Origin: Minisyncoccota bacterium
GTDB lineage: Bacteria > Patescibacteriota > Minisyncoccia > Phycocordibacterales > PALSA-1337
Reading direction: 5' to 3'
Length of the DNA stretch: 59,823 nucleotides
NCBI GenBank assembly: GCA_041665325.1
Contig: JBAYJB010000001.1
Span: forward strand, 1-59,823
Shown here: one piece after another, positions 256 to 52,327 of the stretch
Position numbering within the stretch: position 1 is the first letter of the stretch
Layout of the letters: each line of letters opens with the position of its first letter
Position numbers and translations under genes: made by a program
Notes under the pieces: model-generated
Told to the model about the DNA's origin: nothing
Databases searched by the model: none
Seen by the model: the letters and a program-made list of their open reading frames with translations, nothing else

Positions 256-332
256 TTCATCATTCCTTGAACTTTTCTTCATGGGAATTTGAATCTTTTT
301 TGAAGGAGATTTGAACCTCTGCCTGATATGCT
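256..332 (+). promoter_or_regulatory. Phased 11-bp hexamer array, copy A, facing pilB, plus a -10-like hexamer
   Basis: Hexamers TTCATC 256, TTGAAC 267, TTCATG 278, TTGAAT 289, TTGAAG 300, TTGAAC 311, spaced exactly 11 bp. Then N10, TATGCT 327-332, N6, ATG 339. This is the reverse complement of the arrays at 29139 and 36024. Confidence 0.55.
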
Positions 333-2530: not shown

Positions 2531-3952
2531 ATGATCGCAGTCGACGCTCTCCTGGCCTTAGTCCTTGCGGCCGTATTCGTGTCTGGCATCACGGCGGCGA
2601 CGCTCGAAGCCAGGCAGATGTTCGACCGGGCACGAGATCGATCGGCGCTGATCGCAGCGTATGCGGAGCATCGGGCTGATTTCGACGGGCTCCTGCCGTA
2701 TGAGACTCGGTCGAAGCATTACTTGATCGGCTCTACCACTGAAGCGATCACCATCGAAGCTAGGACGACATGGTACGGCAATGACCGGATCGAAACACAT
2801 GTGAGCGCCGCCTATCGTGGTCGGTCTGTTACATTCCGCACAGTCAAGAATTACCCGTTCCAGGATATAAGCGAGTCTGCTGGTACGCCGCTCTGCACAG
2901 TAGATATGTCGGATGATCAGACAGTGAGTCCCTCCATCGCTATCATTCCCGTCGCATTGCCGATAGACCCGCTATTGCCTCTCATCGACATTGAAGTCAG
3001 GAATGGTATCGCTTATATCTCGATCGATTCGACTGTTGCATCAGATCCGGATTTCATCGTCGTCGATATCAAGGATCCAAAACAGCCAAATCTGCTGTCA
3101 TCGGTAAACACCGGGCCGGGATTGACAGCCTTCGCCCTCGCCGGGAAATATGTGTTTGCGGCGGCTGCGAGCACTGCGGCCCAACTGCATGTGATCCGCC
3201 TAGATAGTCTCACATCTACGGTTTTAGCCAAGAAGTATAAATTACCATTGCCCGAGGCCAGTACTACGCCACCCACAGGCAGTACGATATTCTACGACAA
3301 GGGCAAGATCTATCTCGGCACCGGAAAATGGGATGGGGAAGAGCTGTCGATCCTAGATGTTTCGAATCCGGAAGGGCCGATCATGGTCGACGGGTTCGAG
3401 ACGGGCAGCAAGGTCAATGATGTCATCGTACGCGCTGGCATCGCATATTTGGCTGCATCTGACTCGAGCCAACTACGTTCCATAGACATAAGAGATGCTG
3501 GTTACCCGTTGCTCCTAGAAACATTTAGCCCATCTGGTTCAGATAGACAAGAAGGGAAGGTGTTGGTTTATTTCGAGGATGGTCTGCATCTTGGACGAAC
3601 ATCGGGTGGATTCAACATCAAGGCCGATCACGAATTGTTCCGGTTCCCGAGCTCCTCATCCACACCGAGCGCATATGAGCCAAATCGGCCGCCCGATATC
3701 GCGCAATCCGAAAATTCGCGCGATATTCCTGGTGGAGTATACGGCATCATTGCCAGCCGTTCGCATGTCTATGTAGCGACACGGAATATTGATCGCGAAT
3801 TAACTATCCTTAGCGTATCACTATCGTCTACTACGGCCTCGTACTATCCGTTACCAGTCGCTCCACAAGCGATGACCTGTGACTTAGACCACCTGTATAT
3901 TCTCGCCAAAACAGCGCCTGTCATATATGAAGTCGATCTCAAAAAACAATAA
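2531..3952 (+). CDS. Membrane-anchored beta-propeller-like protein with LVIVD-type repeats
   Basis: The ORF track starts at 2492. ATG 2531 lies after the pilC stop. It has an N-terminal hydrophobic helix and recurring motifs: FIVVDIKDPKQPNLL, LSILDVSNPEGPIMV, LRSIDIRDAGYPLLL. Confidence 0.55.
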   Translation: MIAVDALLALVLAAVFVSGITAATLEARQMFDRARDRSALIAAYAEHRADFDGLLPYETRSKHYLIGSTTEAITIEARTTWYGNDRIETHVSAAYRGRSVTFRTVKNYPFQDISESAGTPLCTVDMSDDQTVSPSIAIIPVALPIDPLLPLIDIEVRNGIAYISIDSTVASDPDFIVVDIKDPKQPNLLSSVNTGPGLTAFALAGKYVFAAAASTAAQLHVIRLDSLTSTVLAKKYKLPLPEASTTPPTGSTIFYDKGKIYLGTGKWDGEELSILDVSNPEGPIMVDGFETGSKVNDVIVRAGIAYLAASDSSQLRSIDIRDAGYPLLLETFSPSGSDRQEGKVLVYFEDGLHLGRTSGGFNIKADHELFRFPSSSSTPSAYEPNRPPDIAQSENSRDIPGGVYGIIASRSHVYVATRNIDRELTILSVSLSSTTASYYPLPVAPQAMTCDLDHLYILAKTAPVIYEVDLKKQ

Positions 3953-4100
3953 TACCGAGATAGGATTCACCCTGATCGAAATGCTCATATATATCGCTCT
4001 TTTGTCATGCCTCATGAGCGCCTTCGTGCCATATGCCTATACCATCCATGAACAAGACCTCCGCTTGCTCGACGAGATCTATGCCGCGGGAGCTTCCTGA
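3927..4100 (+). CDS. Very small prepilin-type protein (57 aa), absent from the ORF track
   Basis: ATG 3927 to TGA 4098-4100. Translation MKSISKNNNTEIGFTLIEMLIYIALLSCLMSAF... carries the class III signal motif G/FTLIE followed by a hydrophobic helix. It overlaps both neighbouring genes. Confidence 0.6.
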   Translation: MKSISKNNNTEIGFTLIEMLIYIALLSCLMSAFVPYAYTIHEQDLRLLDEIYAAGAS

Positions 4101-4341
4101 ACGGGGGTTCATCGCCGTCGTCGCCATCCTGCTCATCTCCGGCGGTATCGCGGCCCTGTCACTGTCGGTCCTTGGGGCAGCCGTCTCATATTCTGATTCT
4201 GTCTATCGTAGAGAGATGCGCCTACAAGCCAGTCTCGATGATCTGGCCTGTGAAGACACGGCGAAGCTCATAAGAGCCAAGGATGCGTTCGCCTCTGGTA
4301 TTGTCCATCTCGATGAATTCGATTGCGATATCGCCTTATAA
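4081..4341 (+). CDS. Pseudopilin-like small protein (no Glu at +5)
   Basis: Internal ATG 4081 of ORF 4033..4341 gives MPRELPERGFIAVVAILLISGGIAAL, a prepilin-like G/F junction plus hydrophobic helix. It sits in the pilin cluster. Confidence 0.5.
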   Translation: MPRELPERGFIAVVAILLISGGIAALSLSVLGAAVSYSDSVYRREMRLQASLDDLACEDTAKLIRAKDAFASGIVHLDEFDCDIAL

Positions 4342-4363
4342 ATCAAAAACTCATCAAATCATC

Positions 4364-4840
4364 ATGCAAAAATTCCATCTCTGCAAAAAAGGGTTCACTC
4401 TCATCGAGGTCCTGGTCGTCATCGGCATCATCGCGGTGTTGGCTTCGATCGTCCTAGTGGCCGTCAATCCGGCCAGACAGTTCAAACTAGCCCGGGATTC
4501 GCAACGGACCGCTAATGTTAACACCCTGCTGAATGCTATCCATCAGAACATCTCGGAGCACCACGGCTCGTTCGTGTGTGGCGGTTCGATCCGTAATATG
4601 CCCCAGACAGCCATGACCGTGAAGTATGGGGCAGGGTTTCCATCCTATGAAGGAGACATCGCTTCGTGTTTGATCCCCGATTATATATCGACGATGCCGT
4701 TCGATCCCTCGAAGATTGGAGCTCATTATGCGGGCTTGGCCGATTATGATACCGGTTACGAGATCTTCCAAGATGCGAACGGCCGCATCACAGCCAGTTC
4801 GAGCGGGGAATTAACGCCTTCGATATCTGTGACGCGTTGA
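4364..4840 (+). CDS. Type IV pilin (prepilin-type N-terminal cleavage/methylation domain)
   Basis: ATG 4364 gives MQKFHLCKKGFTLIEVLVVIGIIAVLASIVLVAV, the canonical G/FTLIE motif. Confidence 0.85.
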   Translation: MQKFHLCKKGFTLIEVLVVIGIIAVLASIVLVAVNPARQFKLARDSQRTANVNTLLNAIHQNISEHHGSFVCGGSIRNMPQTAMTVKYGAGFPSYEGDIASCLIPDYISTMPFDPSKIGAHYAGLADYDTGYEIFQDANGRITASSSGELTPSISVTR

Positions 4841-24169: not shown

Positions 24170-25297
24170 ATGAAAAAATCAATCATTTGGGTTGTGGGCA
24201 TCGTAATCGTGGTCATACTGATTATTGTTGCTTCTAACAAGAAGCCTACCGAGACCGGGCCGATCAGGATTGGATTCATCGGAGCACTTTCAGGTAATAC
24301 TGCCATATACGGTGAATCTGTCAGGAATGGTGTACAGATTGCGGTCGAAGAAATAAATAATGACAACGGAATTAATGGTAGACAGATCCAACTGATACAG
24401 GAGGATGTCGCTTGTTCAGATGGCAAGGTTGCCGCTTCTGCCGCACAGAAGCTTATATCCATAGATAAGGTGAACATCATCATTGGTTTTCCTTGCAGCG
24501 GGGAAGTCCTAGCTGTGGCACCAATCTCCGAGGCAACAAAAACGATAATATTTGCGCAGGGTTCCAGTCCAGCCATAACTGATGCAGGACAATATATCTT
24601 CCGTACCTGGCCAAGCGATGTCTTTGCGGGTAAGACGATGGCATCAAGAGTTTTTGCTGATGGGTTCAGGAAGGCGGCTGTAATAACCGAGAACACTGAA
24701 TACGCGACCTCTATTCGAGATGTCTTTGCCAAGGAGTACTCTACTATAGGTGGCGTTGTCTCTGCCTCGGAAACATTCAAGTCAGATGTAAAAGATTTTC
24801 GATCTATTATAGCCAAGGTGAAGCAGTCAAACCTGGACACCCTCCTCATCAATGCTCAAGCAGGAGGCAATGCTGCAGCGATAGCGAAGCAGGCTAGAGA
24901 ACTAGGGATTAAAACACAATTCTACGGGTACTTCTTTACGGGACCAGATTTCGTGAAGACCGGTCCAGCCGTAGAGGGGACACTTCTGTTGGATGTGCCA
25001 ACCCTAAATCCAAACAATCCCACCTCGGCCGCATTCCTTGCCAAATATGAAGCGAAATATAATCAAAAACCTAGTTATCCATTCTACTCCGGTGGTGGTT
25101 ATGACCAGATGATGCTGTTGGCGCAATCGATCAAAGAAGTTGGGATGGATACCGATAAGATAAGGGAGAGGCTAGAACAAGTCTCAGACTATGATGGTGT
25201 GATAGGTAAGTTCAGCTTTGACAAACAAGGTGATGTGGTTGGTGTCGACCTTAGTTGGGGCAAGATTATAAATGGTGAGTTTGAACCAATAAAATAA
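24170..25297 (+). CDS. ABC transporter substrate-binding protein, LivK/Peripla_BP_6 type, membrane-anchored (SBP1)
   Basis: MKKSIIWVVGIVIVVILIIVA anchor without a lipobox Cys, then GPIRIGFIGALSGNTAIYGESVRNGVQIAVEEIN. Confidence 0.85.
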   Translation: MKKSIIWVVGIVIVVILIIVASNKKPTETGPIRIGFIGALSGNTAIYGESVRNGVQIAVEEINNDNGINGRQIQLIQEDVACSDGKVAASAAQKLISIDKVNIIIGFPCSGEVLAVAPISEATKTIIFAQGSSPAITDAGQYIFRTWPSDVFAGKTMASRVFADGFRKAAVITENTEYATSIRDVFAKEYSTIGGVVSASETFKSDVKDFRSIIAKVKQSNLDTLLINAQAGGNAAAIAKQARELGIKTQFYGYFFTGPDFVKTGPAVEGTLLLDVPTLNPNNPTSAAFLAKYEAKYNQKPSYPFYSGGGYDQMMLLAQSIKEVGMDTDKIRERLEQVSDYDGVIGKFSFDKQGDVVGVDLSWGKIINGEFEPIK

Positions 25298-26418
25298 TGA
25301 AGAAATCAATTTGGTGGATCGTGGGAATAGTCGTCGTTATTCTAATAATCGTAGCAGTTTCGAACAAGAGGCCATCAGAGACCGGTCCGATCAAGATTGG
25401 ATTCATCGGGCCACTGTCTGGCGATGCCGCAGGAGTTGGAGAGCCGGTCGCCAATGGGGTTAGACTTGCGGAAAAGGAGATAAATGATGCTGGTGGTATC
25501 AAGGGTAGGAAGATCCAGGTGTTCTATGGAGACGGCAAGTGCGACGGGCCGACAGCAGTCTCTGTCGCTCAAAAGATGATTAGTATGGATGGGGTGCATT
25601 TCATCATTGGCGGGATTTGCAGCGGAGAAGTGCTGGCGGCGGCGCCAATCTTGGAGGCCGCAAAAGTCCTATCCATCTCTCCCGGCGCGACGAGCCCCAA
25701 TGTATCCAATGCCGGAGATTATGTCTTCAGAAATGCTCCCAATGATGCCGATCGCGGCGTTTCGTTGGCTGATTATGCAGCCGAACATTTTACGAGGATA
25801 GCGGCTATCTCTGAACAGACTGACTACTCACAGTCTTTGAAGAAGAGCTTTGTTGACCAACTGAACGTCAAAGGGATCCAGTTAGTCGCCGATGAGACTT
25901 ACAATTCTGAATCAACAGATTTCCGTTCAATACTCCTCAAGCTCAAGACAGCCAAGCCAGATGTGATCTTCCTCAACCCCCAATCTCCAGCCAATCTCAT
26001 CAGGCTTGCCCAACAGGCTCGCACTACAGGTATCACTGCGCAGTTTATCGCTTCTGAATTCATAGATGCCCAGGTGATGGCCGCCGGCGCGGCTGTGCAG
26101 GGTATGATCGTCAGTGTTGCCCCCGGCTTGTCTGCTGAAGGCAGGGGAGGGGAGCTCCTCACTGCTTACAAGGCGATGTTCGGTAAAGACGCCGATTATC
26201 CTTATTATGTCGGTGCGGCTTACGACAACCTCCACATCTTTGCGGATGGCATAGCCAAATATGGTGAGGATACGACTCTGATCAAGGATTATCTGTATGC
26301 TCTGGAGGATTACCCCGGAACGATAGGGACCTATTCCTTCGATGATGATGGTAATGTCGTGGGAGTCGGCTTCGTCTTCCAGAAGATCGTCGATGGCAAG
26401 GCAGTGCCAATCGAGTAG
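25297..26418 (+). CDS. LivK-type substrate-binding protein (SBP2)
   Basis: Anchor MKKSIWWIVGIVVVILIIV, then GPIKIGFIGPLSGDAAGVGEPVANGVRLAEKEIN. Its start overlaps the SBP1 stop (TAATGA). Confidence 0.85.
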   Translation: MKKSIWWIVGIVVVILIIVAVSNKRPSETGPIKIGFIGPLSGDAAGVGEPVANGVRLAEKEINDAGGIKGRKIQVFYGDGKCDGPTAVSVAQKMISMDGVHFIIGGICSGEVLAAAPILEAAKVLSISPGATSPNVSNAGDYVFRNAPNDADRGVSLADYAAEHFTRIAAISEQTDYSQSLKKSFVDQLNVKGIQLVADETYNSESTDFRSILLKLKTAKPDVIFLNPQSPANLIRLAQQARTTGITAQFIASEFIDAQVMAAGAAVQGMIVSVAPGLSAEGRGGELLTAYKAMFGKDADYPYYVGAAYDNLHIFADGIAKYGEDTTLIKDYLYALEDYPGTIGTYSFDDDGNVVGVGFVFQKIVDGKAVPIE

Positions 26419-29115: not shown

Positions 29116-29138
29116 TCTCAAACCATAACAGGGGAGGG

Positions 29139-29199
29139 TTCAAGAAACATTCAAGAAAAGTTCAAATATTCATGAATATTTGTTCAAGTTTCCATGAAG
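29139..29199. promoter_or_regulatory. Phased 11-bp hexamer array, copy B, between the 113-aa gene and livH
   Basis: TTCAAG 29139, TTCAAG 29150, TTCAAA 29161, ATGAAT 29172, TTCAAG 29183, ATGAAG 29194. Includes the perfect 18-bp palindrome AAATATTCATGAATATTT. Confidence 0.55.
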
Positions 29200-30159: not shown

Positions 30160-31254
30160 ATGAATAAAAAAGCTGTTTGGGGAATAGTTGCCGTAGTTAT
30201 CATAGTACTCATTGCTTTAACAATCTCGAATGTTTCAAATAAGAAGCCTTTTGAAGTAATTACTGGAAAGCCTATAGTTATCGGAGCCCCGCTATCTCTC
30301 TCCGGTGCCGCGGTGCAGGATGGGGAGAGTATCAAGAATGGCCTTGAGATGGCAAAAGCCGATCTCGCCAAGAAGGGGGTGAATGTCGATATCATCTATC
30401 AGGACGACCAGACAGATGGCAAGGGCACAGTGAGTGCCATCCGTGCTCTCGCCGCGAAGGGGGCGCAAGCTCTCATCGGTCCGACATGGAGCTTCCTGGC
30501 TGATGCCGGCGTCCCAGTCGCTGATCAGCTCGGCCTCGTAACAGTCATGCCTGCTAATACTTCGGAGTATGTCGGTGCCAAGAGCCCATATGCCTTCTTT
30601 ACCACAATCAAGGTCCATCAGCTCGTGCCGGCGCTAGCTCAATGGTTGAAGGATAATGACAAGAAGAGCATCGCCATCGTCTCCAATCAGGGCTCGTGGT
30701 ATTCGACGGTTGAGAAAGCGGTGAGAGAGGCTGCTGCTTCGGTTGGTGCGAGTATAGTATTCACTGATACCCTTGTCTTTGGGCAAGAAGCATCGACTCT
30801 GCCTACGGTCCTGACAAAGATGAAGGCGTCAAAGGCCGACGTCCTCTTCATGGAAGTGGATAGCGACGATGGAGTGGCCGTGATGTTCAAGAAGATACGT
30901 GAGTTGGGTATGACTCAGGACATCATGTCGATCTCGACGAGTCTTGGCAGAGTACTCCGAGCCAACCCCGATGGATTCAATTTTAGCAACAAAGTCTACG
31001 TCCTTGCTCCAAAGACGTCGGAGGCATTCACGAGTAAATACGAGAGCGTTTATGGCCAGAAGCCGTCTGCCTATGCTGACACCGCGTATGATTCACTCAT
31101 GCTCCTCGTCGATGCCATCGAGAACAAGGGTTCGTTGCCGCTCGCTGATTATCTGAGGACAAAGACCAACTACAAAGGCCTCTCCCATGAATACAAGTTC
31201 GACTCGAATGGCGACATCGTAGGTGGGGAGTGGGTTGTAGATATGGTTAAGTAA
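30160..31254 (+). CDS. LivK-type substrate-binding protein (SBP4)
   Basis: Anchor MNKKAVWGIVAVVIIVLIAL, then KPIVIGAPLSLSGAAVQDGESIKNGLEMA. Confidence 0.85.
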   Translation: MNKKAVWGIVAVVIIVLIALTISNVSNKKPFEVITGKPIVIGAPLSLSGAAVQDGESIKNGLEMAKADLAKKGVNVDIIYQDDQTDGKGTVSAIRALAAKGAQALIGPTWSFLADAGVPVADQLGLVTVMPANTSEYVGAKSPYAFFTTIKVHQLVPALAQWLKDNDKKSIAIVSNQGSWYSTVEKAVREAAASVGASIVFTDTLVFGQEASTLPTVLTKMKASKADVLFMEVDSDDGVAVMFKKIRELGMTQDIMSISTSLGRVLRANPDGFNFSNKVYVLAPKTSEAFTSKYESVYGQKPSAYADTAYDSLMLLVDAIENKGSLPLADYLRTKTNYKGLSHEYKFDSNGDIVGGEWVVDMVK

Positions 31255-34578: not shown

Positions 34579-35446
34579 CTTGGAATACCTCATCCACATC
34601 GCCATATTGATCGCCATCTACGGCATCCTCGGGTTGTCGCTCAATCTCGTGGTCGGCTATACCGGCCTCCTATCGGTGACGCAGGCGGCTTTCTACGGCA
34701 TGGGCGCGTACACGAGCGCCATCCTCATCACTTCGATGGGCATGAATTTCTTCTGGTCGCTCCTCCTCGGCATGCTCGTGACCGGCGTCTGTAGCCTGGC
34801 GATCGGCTTCGTGCTCTCCAAGTTCCGGGAAGACTACTACGCGCTGGGCTCATTTGGCTTCAACATCATCGTCTACAGCATCTTCCTCAACTGGCAGTCG
34901 CTCACCCGCGGCCCTCTCGGCATCCCTGGCATCTCTCGGCCGTCCCTGTTCGGCTTCACATTCTCGGAGAATCTCTGGTTCCTGATCCTCTCGGTCGTGA
35001 TCTTGGCTGTCATCTTCCTTGTCTGCCAATACATCACCAACTCTTCATTCGGCCGCGTCCTCAAGGCCATCCGCGAAGATGAGGAAGCCATCGCCGTTTT
35101 TGGCTATCGCACGCTCTGGTACAAGCTGGCCATATTCGTGATCGGCGCCATGATCGCTTCGGTAGCCGGCTCGCTTTTTGCATCGTACATCACCTTCATC
35201 GACCCATCGTCGTTCGCGCTCATGGAGTCCATCTTCATCCTGGCTATCATCATCTTGGGCGGCCTGGCCAACAACCGCGGCTCGATCATCGGGGCGGTCT
35301 GCCTCATCCTCCTGCCTGAGATCCTGCGCTTCGTGGGCTTCCCGGACGACGTGGCCGCCCAGATGCGCCAGGTCACTTACGGCGTGATCCTGATCCTCTT
35401 GATGCTCTACCGGCCGCAGGGCTTGGTGGGGGAGTATAAGCTGTAG
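34550..35446 (+). CDS. livM: Branched-chain amino acid ABC transporter permease (LivM type)
   Basis: GLSLNLVVGYTGLLSVTQAAFYGMGAY is typical of LivM. ATG 34550 overlaps SBP7 by 29 nt. An alternative TTG at 34580 follows the SBP7 stop. Confidence 0.88.
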   Translation: MGSLCCIISNLEYLIHIAILIAIYGILGLSLNLVVGYTGLLSVTQAAFYGMGAYTSAILITSMGMNFFWSLLLGMLVTGVCSLAIGFVLSKFREDYYALGSFGFNIIVYSIFLNWQSLTRGPLGIPGISRPSLFGFTFSENLWFLILSVVILAVIFLVCQYITNSSFGRVLKAIREDEEAIAVFGYRTLWYKLAIFVIGAMIASVAGSLFASYITFIDPSSFALMESIFILAIIILGGLANNRGSIIGAVCLILLPEILRFVGFPDDVAAQMRQVTYGVILILLMLYRPQGLVGEYKL

Positions 35447-35452
35447 TGGAGG

Positions 35453-35480
35453 TTGACAAGGCTTTCTGGTTTGATAATAT
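35453..35480 (+). promoter_or_regulatory. Near-consensus promoter with extended -10 for a candidate small RNA (RNA2)
   Basis: TTGACA 35453-58, 16-nt spacer, TGATAATAT with TAATAT at 35475-80. Confidence 0.5.
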
Positions 35481-35486
35481 GATGGG

Positions 35487-35580
35487 CACCCTGGCCTTCG
35501 GGCTCCGAGGTACCCTTCTTAAGATAAATCTTTTGGATAGAGGGAAGCCGTGAACCCCGCAGAGATGCGGGGTTTGAAAT
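35487..35580 (+). ncRNA. Candidate small RNA (RNA2), convergent on MazF-like gene 1
   Basis: Hairpin GGGCACC..GGCC-TTCG-GGCT..GGTACCC and terminator AACCCCGCA-GAGA-TGCGGGGTT plus TTGAAATTT at 35553-35580. It ends at the toxin stop codon (35581). It shares the 15-mer GGCCTTCGGGCTCCG with RNA3. Confidence 0.4.
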
Positions 35581-36000
35581 TTAATCGGACAAGTTTACAT
35601 TTTGTAGGAGCATGAAGGCCAGCATCATTAGGGTCTTCCAGAATTCCATCTCTTTTACTTGGCCTATCTTTCTTAGTAGGCGTTTGCTACTGATAGTTCT
35701 GATCTGCGATGGCACTATGTGTGATTCCGTTCCCGTGCTTTTGGTCGTTATGCCTCGGTTCCTGTCGCTGATCTTGCTCGTGAGAGGCACTATCCAGAGG
35801 CGGTCGTTACTTATCTTCTTGATGATAAGAACAGGTCTTTCGAAGAGATCATTTTTCCCGTCCTGTTCGGAGCCTATATTGACGCCCAAGGCGCACCACC
35901 AGACCTCTCTTTCGTGGAAGAAGTCCTCGAAATTGGTCTTATTGATCTGTTCGGCATAAGCCGCCCATTTCTTGAAATCTTTGATGTATTCCTTGTCCAT
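35581..36000 (-). CDS. PemK/MazF-fold toxin-like protein with no adjacent antitoxin ORF (T1)
   Basis: REVWWCALGVNIGSEQDGKNDLFERPVLIIK aligns with MazF GDLIWVDFDPTKGSEQAGHRPAVVLS; also IVPLTSK and SQIRTISSKRL. TAGAGT-N6-ATG lies upstream. Confidence 0.75.
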   Translation of the reverse strand: MDKEYIKDFKKWAAYAEQINKTNFEDFFHEREVWWCALGVNIGSEQDGKNDLFERPVLIIKKISNDRLWIVPLTSKISDRNRGITTKSTGTESHIVPSQIRTISSKRLLRKIGQVKEMEFWKTLMMLAFMLLQNVNLSD

Positions 36001-36023
36001 CGTGCTACTCTAACAAATGGGTG

Positions 36024-36084
36024 TTCAAATAATCTTCAAAAAAGGTTCAAATTTTAATGAAGAAAGGTTCAAATCCTTATGAAT
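36024..36084. promoter_or_regulatory. Phased 11-bp hexamer array, copy C, between MazF-like gene 1 and SBP8
   Basis: TTCAAA 36024, 36035 and 36046; ATGAAG 36057; TTCAAA 36068; ATGAAT 36079. Same order and spacing as copy B. Confidence 0.55.
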
Positions 36085-36128
36085 TTTTATGGTTTGCTAA
36101 ATTTCAGCAATTTTTATATGCTTTGGGC

Positions 36129-37268
36129 ATGAATAAAAAATACATCTGGGGCATCGTGATCCTGGTAGTAATCATCATCATTCTTGGCCTCATCGTCTGG
36201 GGCGTAAGGTCGTCTGGGACGGAGAGATTGAATCTAAATGAACCAGTAAAAATAGGCGGGTTGTTCAATCTAACTGGTTATGGTGGTTTTGCCGGAGAGG
36301 CTTCTAGAGACGGATTTATCATGGCGATTGAAGACGCAGACTTACCGGAGGGTATGATCGAGACTGTCATAGAAGATGGTCAATCTGACCTCAAGGCCGT
36401 TGTTTCTGGAGCGACCAAGATGACAGAGATAGACAAGGTCATCGCGGTTATTGGTCCTGAGTGGACAGAGTTTGGCGAGGTTGCCGCTCCGATCGCTGTC
36501 AGGAATAAGATTCCGTTTATCTCACCATGGATCGTTGCGGAAATACCGTTTGTCAAACCACCATACTTCTGGTCAGCTAGCCCAAGTTATCGTTCTGAAC
36601 ATGCCGCCTTAGCCGCATATCTCGCAAAGAAAGGGTTAAATAGAATTTCCGTAGTGTACTCGAAGAATGCTTGGTCATTTGCAGATTTAGAGATGTTTAA
36701 GGAAGAGGCGGCGAAGTACTCTACGTTGACTTTCATATCCGAGCAGGGATTGGATCAAACTACGCGTGATTTCCGTACGGTTATCGCTAAGATTAAGTCA
36801 GACAAACCAGATGAAGTGTATGTAGCGATAGCGGAAGATGATGCTTATGGCGCATTTCTGTCTCAGGCTCGTCAGGGCGGTATTATCGTCCCTATAAGCA
36901 CATTCTCTTCCCGTGCTACCTCGGAGGTGATAAAAGATCGTTATCCTCAAGCTCTTCCCGGACAGCTGTTCGCTGATTCTGCTCCGGCAGAACGTTCCAC
37001 AGAATTTGCTGATAAATATGAGAAGAGGTTTGGGAAGAAGGTGGGGGCCCCAAGTGCTGCTGCGACATATGACATGTTGACGGTCATACTCAACGCTGTG
37101 CGATCGGGGGCACGAACTTCTCCAGAAGTGATCTCTTATATGCAGAAGATGTCTGCGTTTGAGGGGTATTCCGGCCAGATTCATTTTGATGAACAGGGAC
37201 ATCTTCCGTTGCGTAAGGCGGTTGTACGACTGGTCAATACTGATGGCATAGCAGAGGAAGTGAAATAA
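36129..37268 (+). CDS. LivK-type substrate-binding protein (SBP8)
   Basis: ATG 36129 gives the MNKKYIWGIVILVVIIIILGLIVWG anchor, then PVKIGGLFNLTGYGGFAGEASRDG. TATGCT-N6-ATG lies upstream. Confidence 0.85.
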   Translation: MNKKYIWGIVILVVIIIILGLIVWGVRSSGTERLNLNEPVKIGGLFNLTGYGGFAGEASRDGFIMAIEDADLPEGMIETVIEDGQSDLKAVVSGATKMTEIDKVIAVIGPEWTEFGEVAAPIAVRNKIPFISPWIVAEIPFVKPPYFWSASPSYRSEHAALAAYLAKKGLNRISVVYSKNAWSFADLEMFKEEAAKYSTLTFISEQGLDQTTRDFRTVIAKIKSDKPDEVYVAIAEDDAYGAFLSQARQGGIIVPISTFSSRATSEVIKDRYPQALPGQLFADSAPAERSTEFADKYEKRFGKKVGAPSAAATYDMLTVILNAVRSGARTSPEVISYMQKMSAFEGYSGQIHFDEQGHLPLRKAVVRLVNTDGIAEEVK

Positions 37269-50619: not shown

Positions 50620-52327
50620 GCAACGGTTCCGAACTAGGATCGTACTCGCCTGCATCCTCATGGGAGCGGGAGTTTTGGCCGCTTCGAGCTATTCGACGGC
50701 CATCATTCACGGCGATGCTTATGCCGCCAAGGCCGACGCTCAATACGCCAAACCTTCCGGCAATCTTTTTGACCGGGGCACTATATATTTCTCCGACAAG
50801 GACGGCCGGCAGACTCCCGCCGCTACCAAGAAGAGCGGCTTCCTGATCTATATCAACCCCAAGCTCATCACTGACCCTCTGCCGGTGTACCAGGCCTTGT
50901 CGAATTATGTGAAGATTGATCAGGCCACATTCCTGGCCAAGGCCAAGAAGGCGAATGATCCATACGAGGAGCTCGTGCATGATGTCGATCAGGCCGCGGC
51001 CGATGCCGTGAGGGGGCTACGTATCAATGGGCTTGCGGCCTCCCCAGAGAATAAGCGTTCATATCCCGGCGGTAGTCTGGCCGCGCATGAACTAGGTCTG
51101 ACCGGTGAGAGCGCTACATCCACGGCGGTGTCCGGTCGTTATGGCCTGGAGCGGGCCTACGACGCGGTTCTACGCCGCAGTGCACCTCCTGGAGCGGTCA
51201 ATGCCTTCGCTCAACTATTTGCCGACATCGAGTCATCTGTCTTGGGCGGCGGTGATCCGCATGCCGGCGATATCGTCACCACCATCGAACCTAAGGTAGA
51301 AGCATATCTCGATAGCGCTCTCGTCAAGATTCGCACCACCTGGCATTCCGACGAGATCGGCGGCATCATCATGGATCCACATACCGGAGAGATCGTAGCT
51401 ATGTCCTCTTTGCCGACCTTTGACCCGAATGATACCGCTGCCGTCAAGGATGTCTCGGTCTTCTCCAACTCGCTCGTCGAACATGCTTATGAGATGGGTT
51501 CGATCATGAAGCCTCTGACCATGGCGGTAGCGCTCGATAGCGGCCGATTCAAGCCAACCTCGACCTATGACGATACAGGCTGTATGACTCTGGATACCAA
51601 GAAGATATGTAACTTCGACGGCAAGGCCCGCGGCATCGTCCCTATGCAACAGATCTTGTCACAATCGCTGAATATCGGGGCGGTGACCCTCGGCCTCAAG
51701 GTCGGCGCGGCCGACTTCACGAGATATTTCGAGAGCTTCGGCGTGACCGCCAAGACCGGCATCGACTTGCCGAACGAAGCCACGCCACTCACCAAGAATC
51801 TGAAGAGCGGCCGCGATATTGCCATCGCCACGGCTTCCTACGGCCAAGGCATCTCCGTATCTCCGGTCGGCATGATCCGCGCTCTGGCAGTCCTAGCCAA
51901 CGGGGGGTATGTCATCACTCCGCACTTGGTCAAGGAGATCAACTACACTGATGGCTCGACCAAGGAGATCAAGACCGACCGTGGGTCCCCGGTCTTCAAG
52001 GCAGAGACGCTCGATGACGTCAAAGATATGCTCGTGACTGTGGTCGACAAGGCTCTAGCCAATGGGTCCATCAAACGGGAGCACTATACCGTGGCGGCTA
52101 AGACGGGTACCGCCGAAGTGCCAGATCCGGTCAATGGCGGCTACTATAGCGACCGGTATCTGCACTCATTCTTCGGCTTCTTCCCGGCCTACAATCCGCG
52201 CTTCATCGTGTTCCTCTATCAGATCAACCCCAAAGGTGCTCAATACGCCTCGGAGACGCTGGTCAAGCCGTTCGACGATATCACGACCTTCCTTCTGAAT
52301 TACTACAATATTCCGCCGGACCGTTGA
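50609..52327 (+). CDS. ftsI: Penicillin-binding protein, FtsI/PBP3-type transpeptidase
   Basis: ATG 50609. SxxK (GSIMKP), SxN (SQSLN), KTG (AKTGTAE). dcw context. Confidence 0.85.
   Translation: MNSKQRFRTRIVLACILMGAGVLAASSYSTAIIHGDAYAAKADAQYAKPSGNLFDRGTIYFSDKDGRQTPAATKKSGFLIYINPKLITDPLPVYQALSNYVKIDQATFLAKAKKANDPYEELVHDVDQAAADAVRGLRINGLAASPENKRSYPGGSLAAHELGLTGESATSTAVSGRYGLERAYDAVLRRSAPPGAVNAFAQLFADIESSVLGGGDPHAGDIVTTIEPKVEAYLDSALVKIRTTWHSDEIGGIIMDPHTGEIVAMSSLPTFDPNDTAAVKDVSVFSNSLVEHAYEMGSIMKPLTMAVALDSGRFKPTSTYDDTGCMTLDTKKICNFDGKARGIVPMQQILSQSLNIGAVTLGLKVGAADFTRYFESFGVTAKTGIDLPNEATPLTKNLKSGRDIAIATASYGQGISVSPVGMIRALAVLANGGYVITPHLVKEINYTDGSTKEIKTDRGSPVFKAETLDDVKDMLVTVVDKALANGSIKREHYTVAAKTGTAEVPDPVNGGYYSDRYLHSFFGFFPAYNPRFIVFLYQINPKGAQYASETLVKPFDDITTFLLNYYNIPPDR

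Follow-up and report, generated by a model that had tools for sequence, protein, structure and literature searches.

How a bacterium could hold a MazF-type toxin in check where no gene for a MazE-type antitoxin adjoins it is the question raised by a locus in contig JBAYJB010000001.1 (GenBank assembly GCA_041665325.1) of a Minisyncoccota bacterium in the Patescibacteriota lineage. The 59,823-nucleotide (nt) stretch of this contig that was analyzed is referred to here as the window. The locus, listed as module 2 in an initial annotation of the window and called the focal module below, joins a toxin gene to a promoter-driven small RNA (sRNA) gene that runs toward it on the opposite strand (Table 1). 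The initial annotation had proposed that the RNA serves as an antitoxin. Comparison of this locus with its relatives indicates that the sRNA is probably the cognate antitoxin of the MazF-type toxin and takes the place of a MazE-type protein. As to its mode of action, direct neutralization of the toxin by the RNA, resembling type III systems and carried out by a single non-repeated unit, is tentatively favored on comparative grounds.

The open reading frame (ORF) of the focal toxin had initially been read as a MazF-type protein, and domain, fold, and active-site evidence bear this out. It matches the Pfam family PF02452 (PemK_toxin) at E 4.8e-12, scoring 46.5 bits where the curated cut-off is 23.1. 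In a Foldseek search with its AlphaFold2 model (predicted local distance difference test score 83.8, predicted template-modeling score 0.79), the top 50 structures are all MazF with a probability of 1.00. Template-modeling (TM) scores against solved MazF structures are 0.6-0.8, with target-normalized TM scores of up to 0.81, and the closest structures are MazF-mt1, Staphylococcus aureus MazF, and Bacillus subtilis MazF. A profile made from the toxin relatives matches the S. aureus and B. subtilis MazF proteins in the PDB (E about 1e-6), and in the alignment R55 and T74 of the focal toxin correspond to the Arg and Thr that S. aureus MazF uses in catalysis. Across the relatives, R55 is invariant and T74 is kept in at least 90% of sequences. 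With the MazF fold and both catalytic residues retained in sequence and model, the toxin looks catalytically active.

The focal toxin also carries an N-terminal helix (residues 9-20) that canonical MazF lacks, and its N-terminal extension of about 30 residues is conserved, including K7, F9, and W12. Its 563 homologues, most of them from Patescibacteria, bear the database name "type II toxin-antitoxin system PemK/MazF family toxin", and neither NCBIfam nor PADLOC has a model for the toxin. A type II MazEF module is recognized by an adjacent, usually upstream and co-transcribed protein antitoxin gene, and the window has no such gene, nor do 75 related loci share a conserved family of upstream ORFs. 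As the initial annotation had also recorded, no MazE-like ORF flanks the focal toxin on either side. The 131 nt upstream of it (36001-36131) are intergenic and are followed by a divergent binding-protein gene, and downstream lies the end of livM, whose stop codon occupies 35444-35446. Among the 75 related loci, no conserved small ORF occurs within 350 nt upstream of the toxin.

The gene that does adjoin the focal toxin is that of the sRNA. Its near-consensus sigma-70 promoter starts 7 nt after the livM stop codon and is present on the opposite strand just as initially described, with 10 of 12 consensus matches plus the TG extension, and it ranks among the three best promoter-like sites between 30 and 42 kilobases (kb) of the window. 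The stretch of about 95 nt with a UUCG-capped hairpin and a terminator meeting the toxin stop codon is likewise present, and the sRNA tail overlaps that codon (35581-35583). The GC-rich core hairpin of the terminator spans 35555-35572 (CCCCGC/GCGGGG), is extended by GAA/UUU to 35552-35575, and continues as UUUGAAAUUU to 35582. On the toxin strand, the hairpin at this position is not followed by a U-run.

A set of 80 related toxin loci, anchored on the protein and taken from species-representative genomes, places the focal RNA in a family. A homologous RNA gene of about 50 nt lies directly downstream of the toxin and on the opposite strand in approximately 74 of these loci, most of which belong to Patescibacteria. 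In its layout, a promoter is followed by a short leader, which often reads ACAAAU, then by hairpin 1, the YCCGA linker, hairpin 2 (GC-rich, with a G-C closing pair), a G, and a U-run. The promoter reaches at least 10 of 12 consensus positions in 56 of 71 loci, compared to 0.16% of control windows. A covariance model of the RNA, R1, was built from 57 loci, and its start lies 3-7 nt beyond the end of the -10 box. R1 recovers both copies of the RNA in the window. The initial annotation had recommended a covariation search on homologous loci, and the focal RNA, whose sequence is absent from the R1 seed, is matched at 35486-35585 (24.1 bits, E 3e-6) with a 54-nt insertion that corresponds to helix X.

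Both hairpins of the family covary. Hairpin 1 (at least 3 base pairs) forms in 75 of the 80 RNAs and has 40 distinct sequences; its loop is UUCG in 35 of the 80, and overall hairpin 1 is capped by UUCG or UUAG and hairpin 2 by GNRA loops. Hairpin 2, which is the terminator, is 91% paired and shows changes on both sides in all 10 of its pairs, with a covariation score of 0.421. Shuffles give 0.141, with none of 500 attaining the observed score, and sliding the pairing partners yields no more than 0.097. The linker between the hairpins reads UCCGA in 50 and CCCGA in 12 of the 80 members. While the stems drift freely in the family, the linker and the closing pair are fixed. The family alignment holds 37 G.U cells versus 18 A.C cells, and this excess, together with the UUCG and GNRA loops, indicates that the structured strand is that of the sRNA and not that of the toxin mRNA.

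The element is non-coding, since the length changes in its hairpins are not multiples of three and the toxin ORFs end at many different points. A mini-ORF within the RNA (AUG-GCU-UCG...) was rejected for the same lack of three-nucleotide periodicity in hairpin length and because its frame passes the terminator. With covariation in both hairpins, a conserved promoter, and structure on the RNA strand, the initial description of a non-coding, promoter-driven sRNA holds. By comparison with these relatives, the focal RNA is an unusual, long version of a short RNA that is far more widespread, a relationship that the initial annotation had not seen.

The long form is the rarer one, and five relatives with helix X were found. 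In the short form, a single helix fills the roles of both core helix and terminator, whereas in the long form the CCGA linker and a helix closed by a G-C pair and followed by G are separate from the terminator. The stems of helix X are identical in sequence across loci whose toxins are just 40-51% identical. Hairpin 1 and the small inner hairpin covary among the long-form relatives, and the inner hairpin shows a compensatory change between the window and the loci L488 and L521.

The position of the RNA relative to the toxin gene is also constant. The toxin stop codon falls 1-6 nt inside the RNA 3′ tail in 44 of 71 loci, the toxin ORF extends into the RNA antisense in 26, and a gap separates the two in one, for an overall overlap in 70 of 71. 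About 85 of 120 genomic matches to the 18-mer TGGCTTCGGCCTCCGAGA look genuine, of which at least 68 face a PemK gene in convergent orientation. Toxin genes in dozens of unrelated settings, for example beside rpoC, ftsZ, and dnaG, are followed by this promoter, these hairpins, and this terminator, which excludes the possibility, raised in the initial annotation, that the hairpin acts only as the livM terminator. The arrangement is genuine and far from what chance would produce.

The window itself contains a second module of this kind. It holds only two PemK ORFs, whose products are 35% identical (BLASTP E 3e-28), and exactly two copies of the 15-mer GGCCTTCGGGCTCCG, each behind a consensus promoter and convergent to one of the PemK paralogues. 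The sRNA of the second module has the short canonical form and matches R1 at 39377-39434 with 29.9 bits and a fold z-score of -4.1. The toxin and sRNA genes overlap by 5 nt in the focal module and by 68 nt in the second, where the toxin frame crosses the antisense of the entire sRNA before reaching its stop codon, with the result that the C-terminal tail ...SAEMAESAEPEGLIPKV of the second toxin is the sRNA antisense in translation.

Distant relatives of the focal toxin occur on plasmids of Campylobacterota. A tblastn search against plasmids returned homologues in Nitratiruptor (38.7% identity, E 2e-16), on pVir of Campylobacter jejuni (29.6% identity over 81%, E 1e-5), and in Helicobacter suis, all of which share an N-terminal F-D-x-W-N helix. 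At each of the three, a promoter-driven, multi-hairpin RNA gene lies on the opposite strand and ends a few nt from the toxin stop codon. The RNAs of these plasmid relatives gave no match in an R1 search and lack the YCCGA linker.

In C. jejuni 81-176, the PemK gene of pVir (CJJ81176_pVir0047) spans 30634-31038. A 77-nt RNA named CJpv3 has been detected on the minus strand of this plasmid, from 31119 to 31043, by Northern blot and differential RNA sequencing (Dugar et al. 2013, PMC3656092, Table S12). CJpv3 is convergent to the PemK gene and ends 5 nt from its stop codon, and its detection shows directly that the counterpart of the focal RNA is expressed at a distant homologue. According to two papers that cite Shen et al. 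2016 (Mol Microbiol 101:909), CjrA is the antisense RNA antitoxin of a type I system on pVir. CJpv3 and pVir0047 are possibly identical to this cjrA/cjpT system; the other candidate is CJpv2. CJpv2 was also detected by Northern blot and lies antisense to unannotated ORFs of 35, 41, and 58 amino acids in a 476-nt intergenic gap (about 25268-25700 of pVir, NC_008770, locus L563). The 41- and 58-residue ORFs are hydrophobic, and the CJpv2 locus looks like a classical type I toxin-antitoxin candidate.

The proposal of an RNA antitoxin is supported in every part open to computation, and the antitoxin function itself and its mode are what is inferred. The RNA would be made constitutively and in excess and would keep the toxin harmless. 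Under the favored mode, its rigid two-helix scaffold would hold out the linker, which is invariant, as a decoy that the toxin dimer does not cleave. An antisense, type I-like layer may act too, as the RNA would be fully complementary to any 3′ untranslated region of the toxin mRNA, and the two modes could operate together. If the module were lost or its transcription halted, the short-lived RNA would decay and the RNase would be freed.

The most serious competitor, which is possible and less probable than binding of the toxin protein, is type I-like antisense control through the 3′ overlap. Here, the toxin mRNA, with no terminator of its own ahead of the RNA gene, would read into that gene, and the abundant sRNA would pair with the mRNA 3′ end at or beyond the stop codon, leading to RNase III cleavage or 3′ decay and possibly to non-stop mRNA, with head-on transcription also interfering with transcription of the toxin gene. 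The convergent overlap counted above fits this well, as does the missing U-run on the toxin strand, which makes read-through likely. The same geometry is kept at the Nitratiruptor, C. jejuni, and H. suis homologues despite their different RNA sequences. What antisense control leaves unexplained is the conservation of the RNA: complementarity in cis is automatic and requires no conserved sequence, so the invariant YCCGA linker, the fixed closing pair beside drifting stems, and the 41-nt helix X shared by strongly diverged toxins point instead to a sequence-specific partner and favor protein binding.

The shape of the RNA argues in the same direction. Stable tetraloops are poor start sites for loop-loop antisense pairing; with its helices capped by UUCG and GNRA, the RNA has only about 11 nucleotides unpaired, and it offers no kissing loop of the YUNR type. 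Complementarity between the RNA and the translation start region of the toxin is absent (mean z -0.3), and pairing in trans with the ribosome-binding or start region was rejected, as complementary k-mers are not enriched and duplex energies equal those of shuffles. The toxin is moreover a predicted soluble RNase of 140 residues and not a small membrane peptide. Indirect support for type III-like binding of the toxin protein comes from the invariant linker beside covarying stems.

Several points weigh against this reading. For the Patescibacteria family, toxicity, RNase activity, and rescue by the RNA are predictions from sequence, as is binding of the RNA to the protein. Over the wider superfamily, including the Campylobacterota plasmids without YCCGA, the universal feature is the convergent geometry abutting the stop codon, which antisense control or a shared terminator fits at least as well as protein binding. 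The type I label of CjrA would favor antisense control if CjrA is CJpv3. About 10 orphan RNA copies have no intact adjoining toxin. At locus L131 (on a contig shared with L245), a strong sRNA copy (36-102) lies only upstream of the toxin and divergent from it, with back-to-back TTGAC promoters and no copy downstream; this arrangement is ambiguous, since the contig begins there and the RNA may belong to a lost upstream toxin.

Other explanations sever the RNA from toxin neutralization or from function altogether. It is improbable that the RNA is an accessory that tunes toxin expression, or insulates the toxin gene from read-through of a neighboring operon, while the true antitoxin is a protein, encoded elsewhere or by a non-adjacent upstream gene. 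Both RNAs in the window do point in the direction of the liv genes, and their terminators would keep operon transcription from reading through into toxin antisense, yet an element that insulates would require no consensus promoter of its own and no invariant linker. An upstream gene of this type is perhaps pVir0046, a 120-residue ORF located 232 nt upstream of the pVir toxin, and the two may be the reported type II pair of pVir. Against this, no antitoxin-type Pfam domain was found in the pVir ORF, no upstream gene like it occurs at the Nitratiruptor and H. suis homologues, and the 75 related loci share no conserved ORF upstream of the toxin, as described above.

More improbable still is a function unrelated to the toxin, with the RNA carried in the same mobile cassette as an sRNA for a host target, a recombination or integration site, or a substrate or guide of the toxin. 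Orphan copies with intact promoters do exist, and the RNA is more conserved in sequence than the toxin, which would fit a conserved host target. This account is at odds with the adjacency to a PemK gene of at least 68 of the roughly 85 genuine copies and with the presence of the RNA at about 93% of toxins; no flanking repeats or integrase genes were seen, and at least one orphan, at L293, adjoins a decayed toxin, as expected if the antitoxin outlives the toxin. Finally, a chance promoter-like sequence combined with the livM terminator, or a C-terminal coding tail of longer toxin ORFs, is hardly credible. The terminator does follow livM, and some homologues are annotated with tails of the form ETPP...G(I)SEPEG, but the comparative data refute both versions through the many unrelated contexts, the promoter counts relative to controls, the covarying helices, the scattered ORF ends, and hairpin length changes that are not multiples of three.

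Protein binding by the RNA invites comparison with type III systems (ToxIN, CptIN, TenpIN, and AbiQ/antiQ), which likewise combine an endoribonuclease toxin with an adjoining small structured RNA and no protein antitoxin. Type III toxins reportedly have a Kid/MazF-like fold. A further likeness is that the RNA described here is more constrained than plain antisense would need. Type III antitoxins, however, are tandem direct repeats located upstream of the toxin on the same strand, with a terminator between the two, and are cut into units by the toxin, whereas each module here has one RNA unit, without repeats, which has a promoter of its own and lies downstream of the toxin on the other strand. 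A Tandem Repeats Finder search of 35200-36000 gave no tandem-repeat array, and the sole repeats are 22-nt units at 36023-36083. The toxin here is a true PF02452 MazF and does not belong to the ToxN, CptN, or TenpN families.

Type I systems with convergent, 3′-overlapping antitoxin RNAs include par Fst/RNAII of Enterococcus faecalis, which has a shared bidirectional terminator, and txpA/RatA and bsrG/SR4 of B. subtilis. The focal module is like these in that the promoter of the antitoxin is strong, the two genes are transcribed toward each other, and they overlap at the 3′ end or terminator of the toxin. It is unlike them in that its toxin is a MazF-fold protein of about 140 residues, where the usual but not universal type I toxin is a hydrophobic peptide of fewer than 60. 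SymE/SymR and RalR/RalA are type I systems with enzyme toxins, so type I toxins are not necessarily membrane peptides. The RNA is also unlike those of type I in being conserved in sequence over phylum-level distances, in its capped rigid helices, and in lacking complementarity to the ribosome-binding region.

With type II MazEF/PemIK systems, the focal module shares the toxin fold, the catalytic Arg and Thr, and the Pfam family; it differs in the absence of a mazE or pemI gene and in the additional conserved N-terminal helix. The closest studied relative, on C. jejuni pVir, has a homologous toxin with the F-D-x-W-N helix and a convergent, promoter-driven, multi-hairpin RNA near the stop codon. 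It differs in that its RNA has no detectable homology to the window family and no YCCGA linker, and in its host, as pVir is a conjugative plasmid of a proteobacterium-like lineage and the focal module sits on a Patescibacteria-type chromosome. The pemK RNA motif is an existing Rfam family and is likewise an RNA motif tied to pemK genes. It reportedly lies upstream of pemK and has a tandem-hairpin architecture. The sRNA here does not match it and is instead a separate transcript, downstream and antisense.

The comparison with related loci supports the interpretation of the initial annotation and points to something new among RNA-antitoxin modules, namely a genuine MazF toxin with a single, non-repeated, convergent structured RNA that appears widespread in Patescibacteria and is unannotated. 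This novelty is tempered by the probable existence of an experimentally studied cousin on C. jejuni pVir. Hundreds of PemK/MazF genes of the candidate phyla radiation are annotated as type II with no antitoxin, and the partner proposed for them is the unannotated RNA gene of about 50 nt. This changes how toxin-antitoxin content, and probably also phage defense and element maintenance, are counted for a large, CRISPR-poor part of the bacterial tree. With its promoter, two covarying helices, and invariant linker, the RNA forms a well-supported family outside Rfam. Because the toxin is a textbook MazF, the module offers a clean way to ask if MazE can be replaced by an RNA, and cultivable relatives exist in C. 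jejuni pVir, with its Northern-detected CJpv3, and in the Nitratiruptor plasmids.

A bolder and rather doubtful extension is that the Patescibacteria modules and the related Campylobacterota-plasmid modules represent an unclassified architecture, in which a genuine MazF is checked by one rigid, non-repeated, protein-binding decoy RNA whose linker and helix base mimic the conserved cellular RNA target of the toxin. If a decoy RNA of this type is at work, the architecture would connect type II MazEF with type III systems in evolutionary terms and would explain the hundreds of "orphan" MazF annotations.

Table 1. Positions and composition of the two toxin-RNA modules in the window.
Feature	Coordinates	Strand	Basis
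Focal module (module 2): toxin gene; 139-residue PemK/MazF-fold putative endoribonuclease	35581..36000	(-)	Pfam, AlphaFold model, Foldseek
Focal module: sRNA promoter; TTGACA 35453-35458, 16-nt spacer, TG-extended TAATAT 35475-35480	35453..35480	(+)	Promoter scan
Focal module: predicted sRNA, about 95 nt, long variant	35487..35582	(+)	Covariance model R1
Focal module: hairpin 1, GGCCUUCGGGCU; GGCC-UUCG-GGCU, closing G.U pair	35493..35504	(+)	Sequence and family comparison
Focal module: linker CCGA, near-invariant (family consensus YCCGA)	35505..35508	(+)	Family comparison
Focal module: helix X, GGU.CCCUU...GAGGG..GCC, long variant only	35509..35549	(+)	RNAalifold, six long-variant sequences
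Focal module: small variable hairpin inside helix X, AGAU-AA-AUCU	35523..35532	(+)	RNAalifold, six long-variant sequences
Focal module: intrinsic terminator of sRNA, GAA-CCCCGC-AGAGAU-GCGGGG-UUU then GAAAUUU	35552..35582	(+)	Sequence, folding, family covariation
Second module: sRNA promoter; TTGACA-N16-TATACT	39346..39373	(+)	11 of 12 matches, best site in 30-42 kb
Second module: sRNA, short canonical form; GGCC-UUCG-GGCU, UCCGC linker, CUCCGCC-AUUUC-GGCGGAG, UUUU	39380..39428	(+)	
Second module: toxin gene	39367..39810	(-)	Pfam PF02452, E 1.7e-11, 44.7 bits

Irregular copies of the RNA occur at a few of the related loci. L293 contains tandem modules, the first of which (3900-4046) consists of an internally deleted toxin remnant and an intact canonical sRNA with its promoter, and the second (4279-4740) of an intact toxin and a divergent RNA variant without the YCCGA linker and U-run. 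L197 has, besides the usual copy downstream, a degenerate second sRNA copy (2395-2449, 33 bits) that carries a mutated hairpin 1 and lies after rpoC, ahead of the toxin start. Apparent exceptions to the convergent layout are mostly a matter of neighboring modules: at L293 and L264 the copies are orphans or relics next to a further module, and that at L197 is the degenerate copy after rpoC. L308 is represented by a truncated match. In the window, a weak R1 match at 51023-51063 (11.2 bits, E 0.21) falls within a long ORF, has neither a promoter nor a toxin in its vicinity, and is most likely due to chance, and a partial copy of the 15-mer in the 3′ coding region of the focal toxin (35606-35620, three mismatches) is at chance level.

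Gene callers carry toxin ORFs into the sRNA antisense, and the resulting ETPP...G(I)SEPEG tails are an annotation artifact. Such extended tails are found in the window at 39367-39430 and in the proteins P0006, P0010, P0026, P0048, P0055, P0061, and P0071. Because they are the antisense translation of the hairpin plus the 15-mer, these tails were the first sign of conservation at the nucleotide level. A genome scan with the 15-mer alone gave mostly chance matches in GC-rich genomes and was dropped in favor of protein-anchored loci. In viral contigs, 120 matches to a 16-mer included one with a terminator-like tail and none with a PemK neighbor, which leaves carriage by phages unsupported. A cmscan of the window modules and canonical relatives against Rfam 15 gave no gathering-score match except to transfer RNAs and nothing relevant at E up to 10. 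Likenesses of the linker and hairpins to ribosomal RNA, RNase P, and the sarcin-ricin loop, noted by eye only, were dropped, as they involved the variable hairpin 1 or at most 5 nt.

The second toxin has a plausible candidate promoter, TCGACA-N17-AATAAT, on the minus strand at 39860-39888, which agrees with the consensus at 10 of 12 positions and precedes the ATG (39808-39810) by about 50 nt. This site overlaps the divergent start region of an ATP-binding cassette (ABC) ATPase gene at 39937. Both toxin-RNA modules (35400-36200 and 39300-39950) lie between genes of one liv-type ABC transporter cluster, and in both the sRNA runs in the direction of the operon and the toxin in the opposite direction. 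The GC content at the two modules is 0.40-0.47, compared to 0.56-0.59 in the flanking genes, which suggests that they are acquired cassettes.

Three (G)GTTCAAAT boxes with a spacing of exactly 22 nt occupy 36022-36083, between the start of the focal toxin and the divergent binding-protein gene. Two further boxes lie upstream of an ORF at 339 (287-317, minus strand), and others are at about 29138-29167. With one mismatch allowed, the window contains 25 matches versus 13 expected, a number reached in none of 100 shuffles. These boxes probably belong to the transporter genes, as an operator bound by a host regulator, and not to the toxin module.

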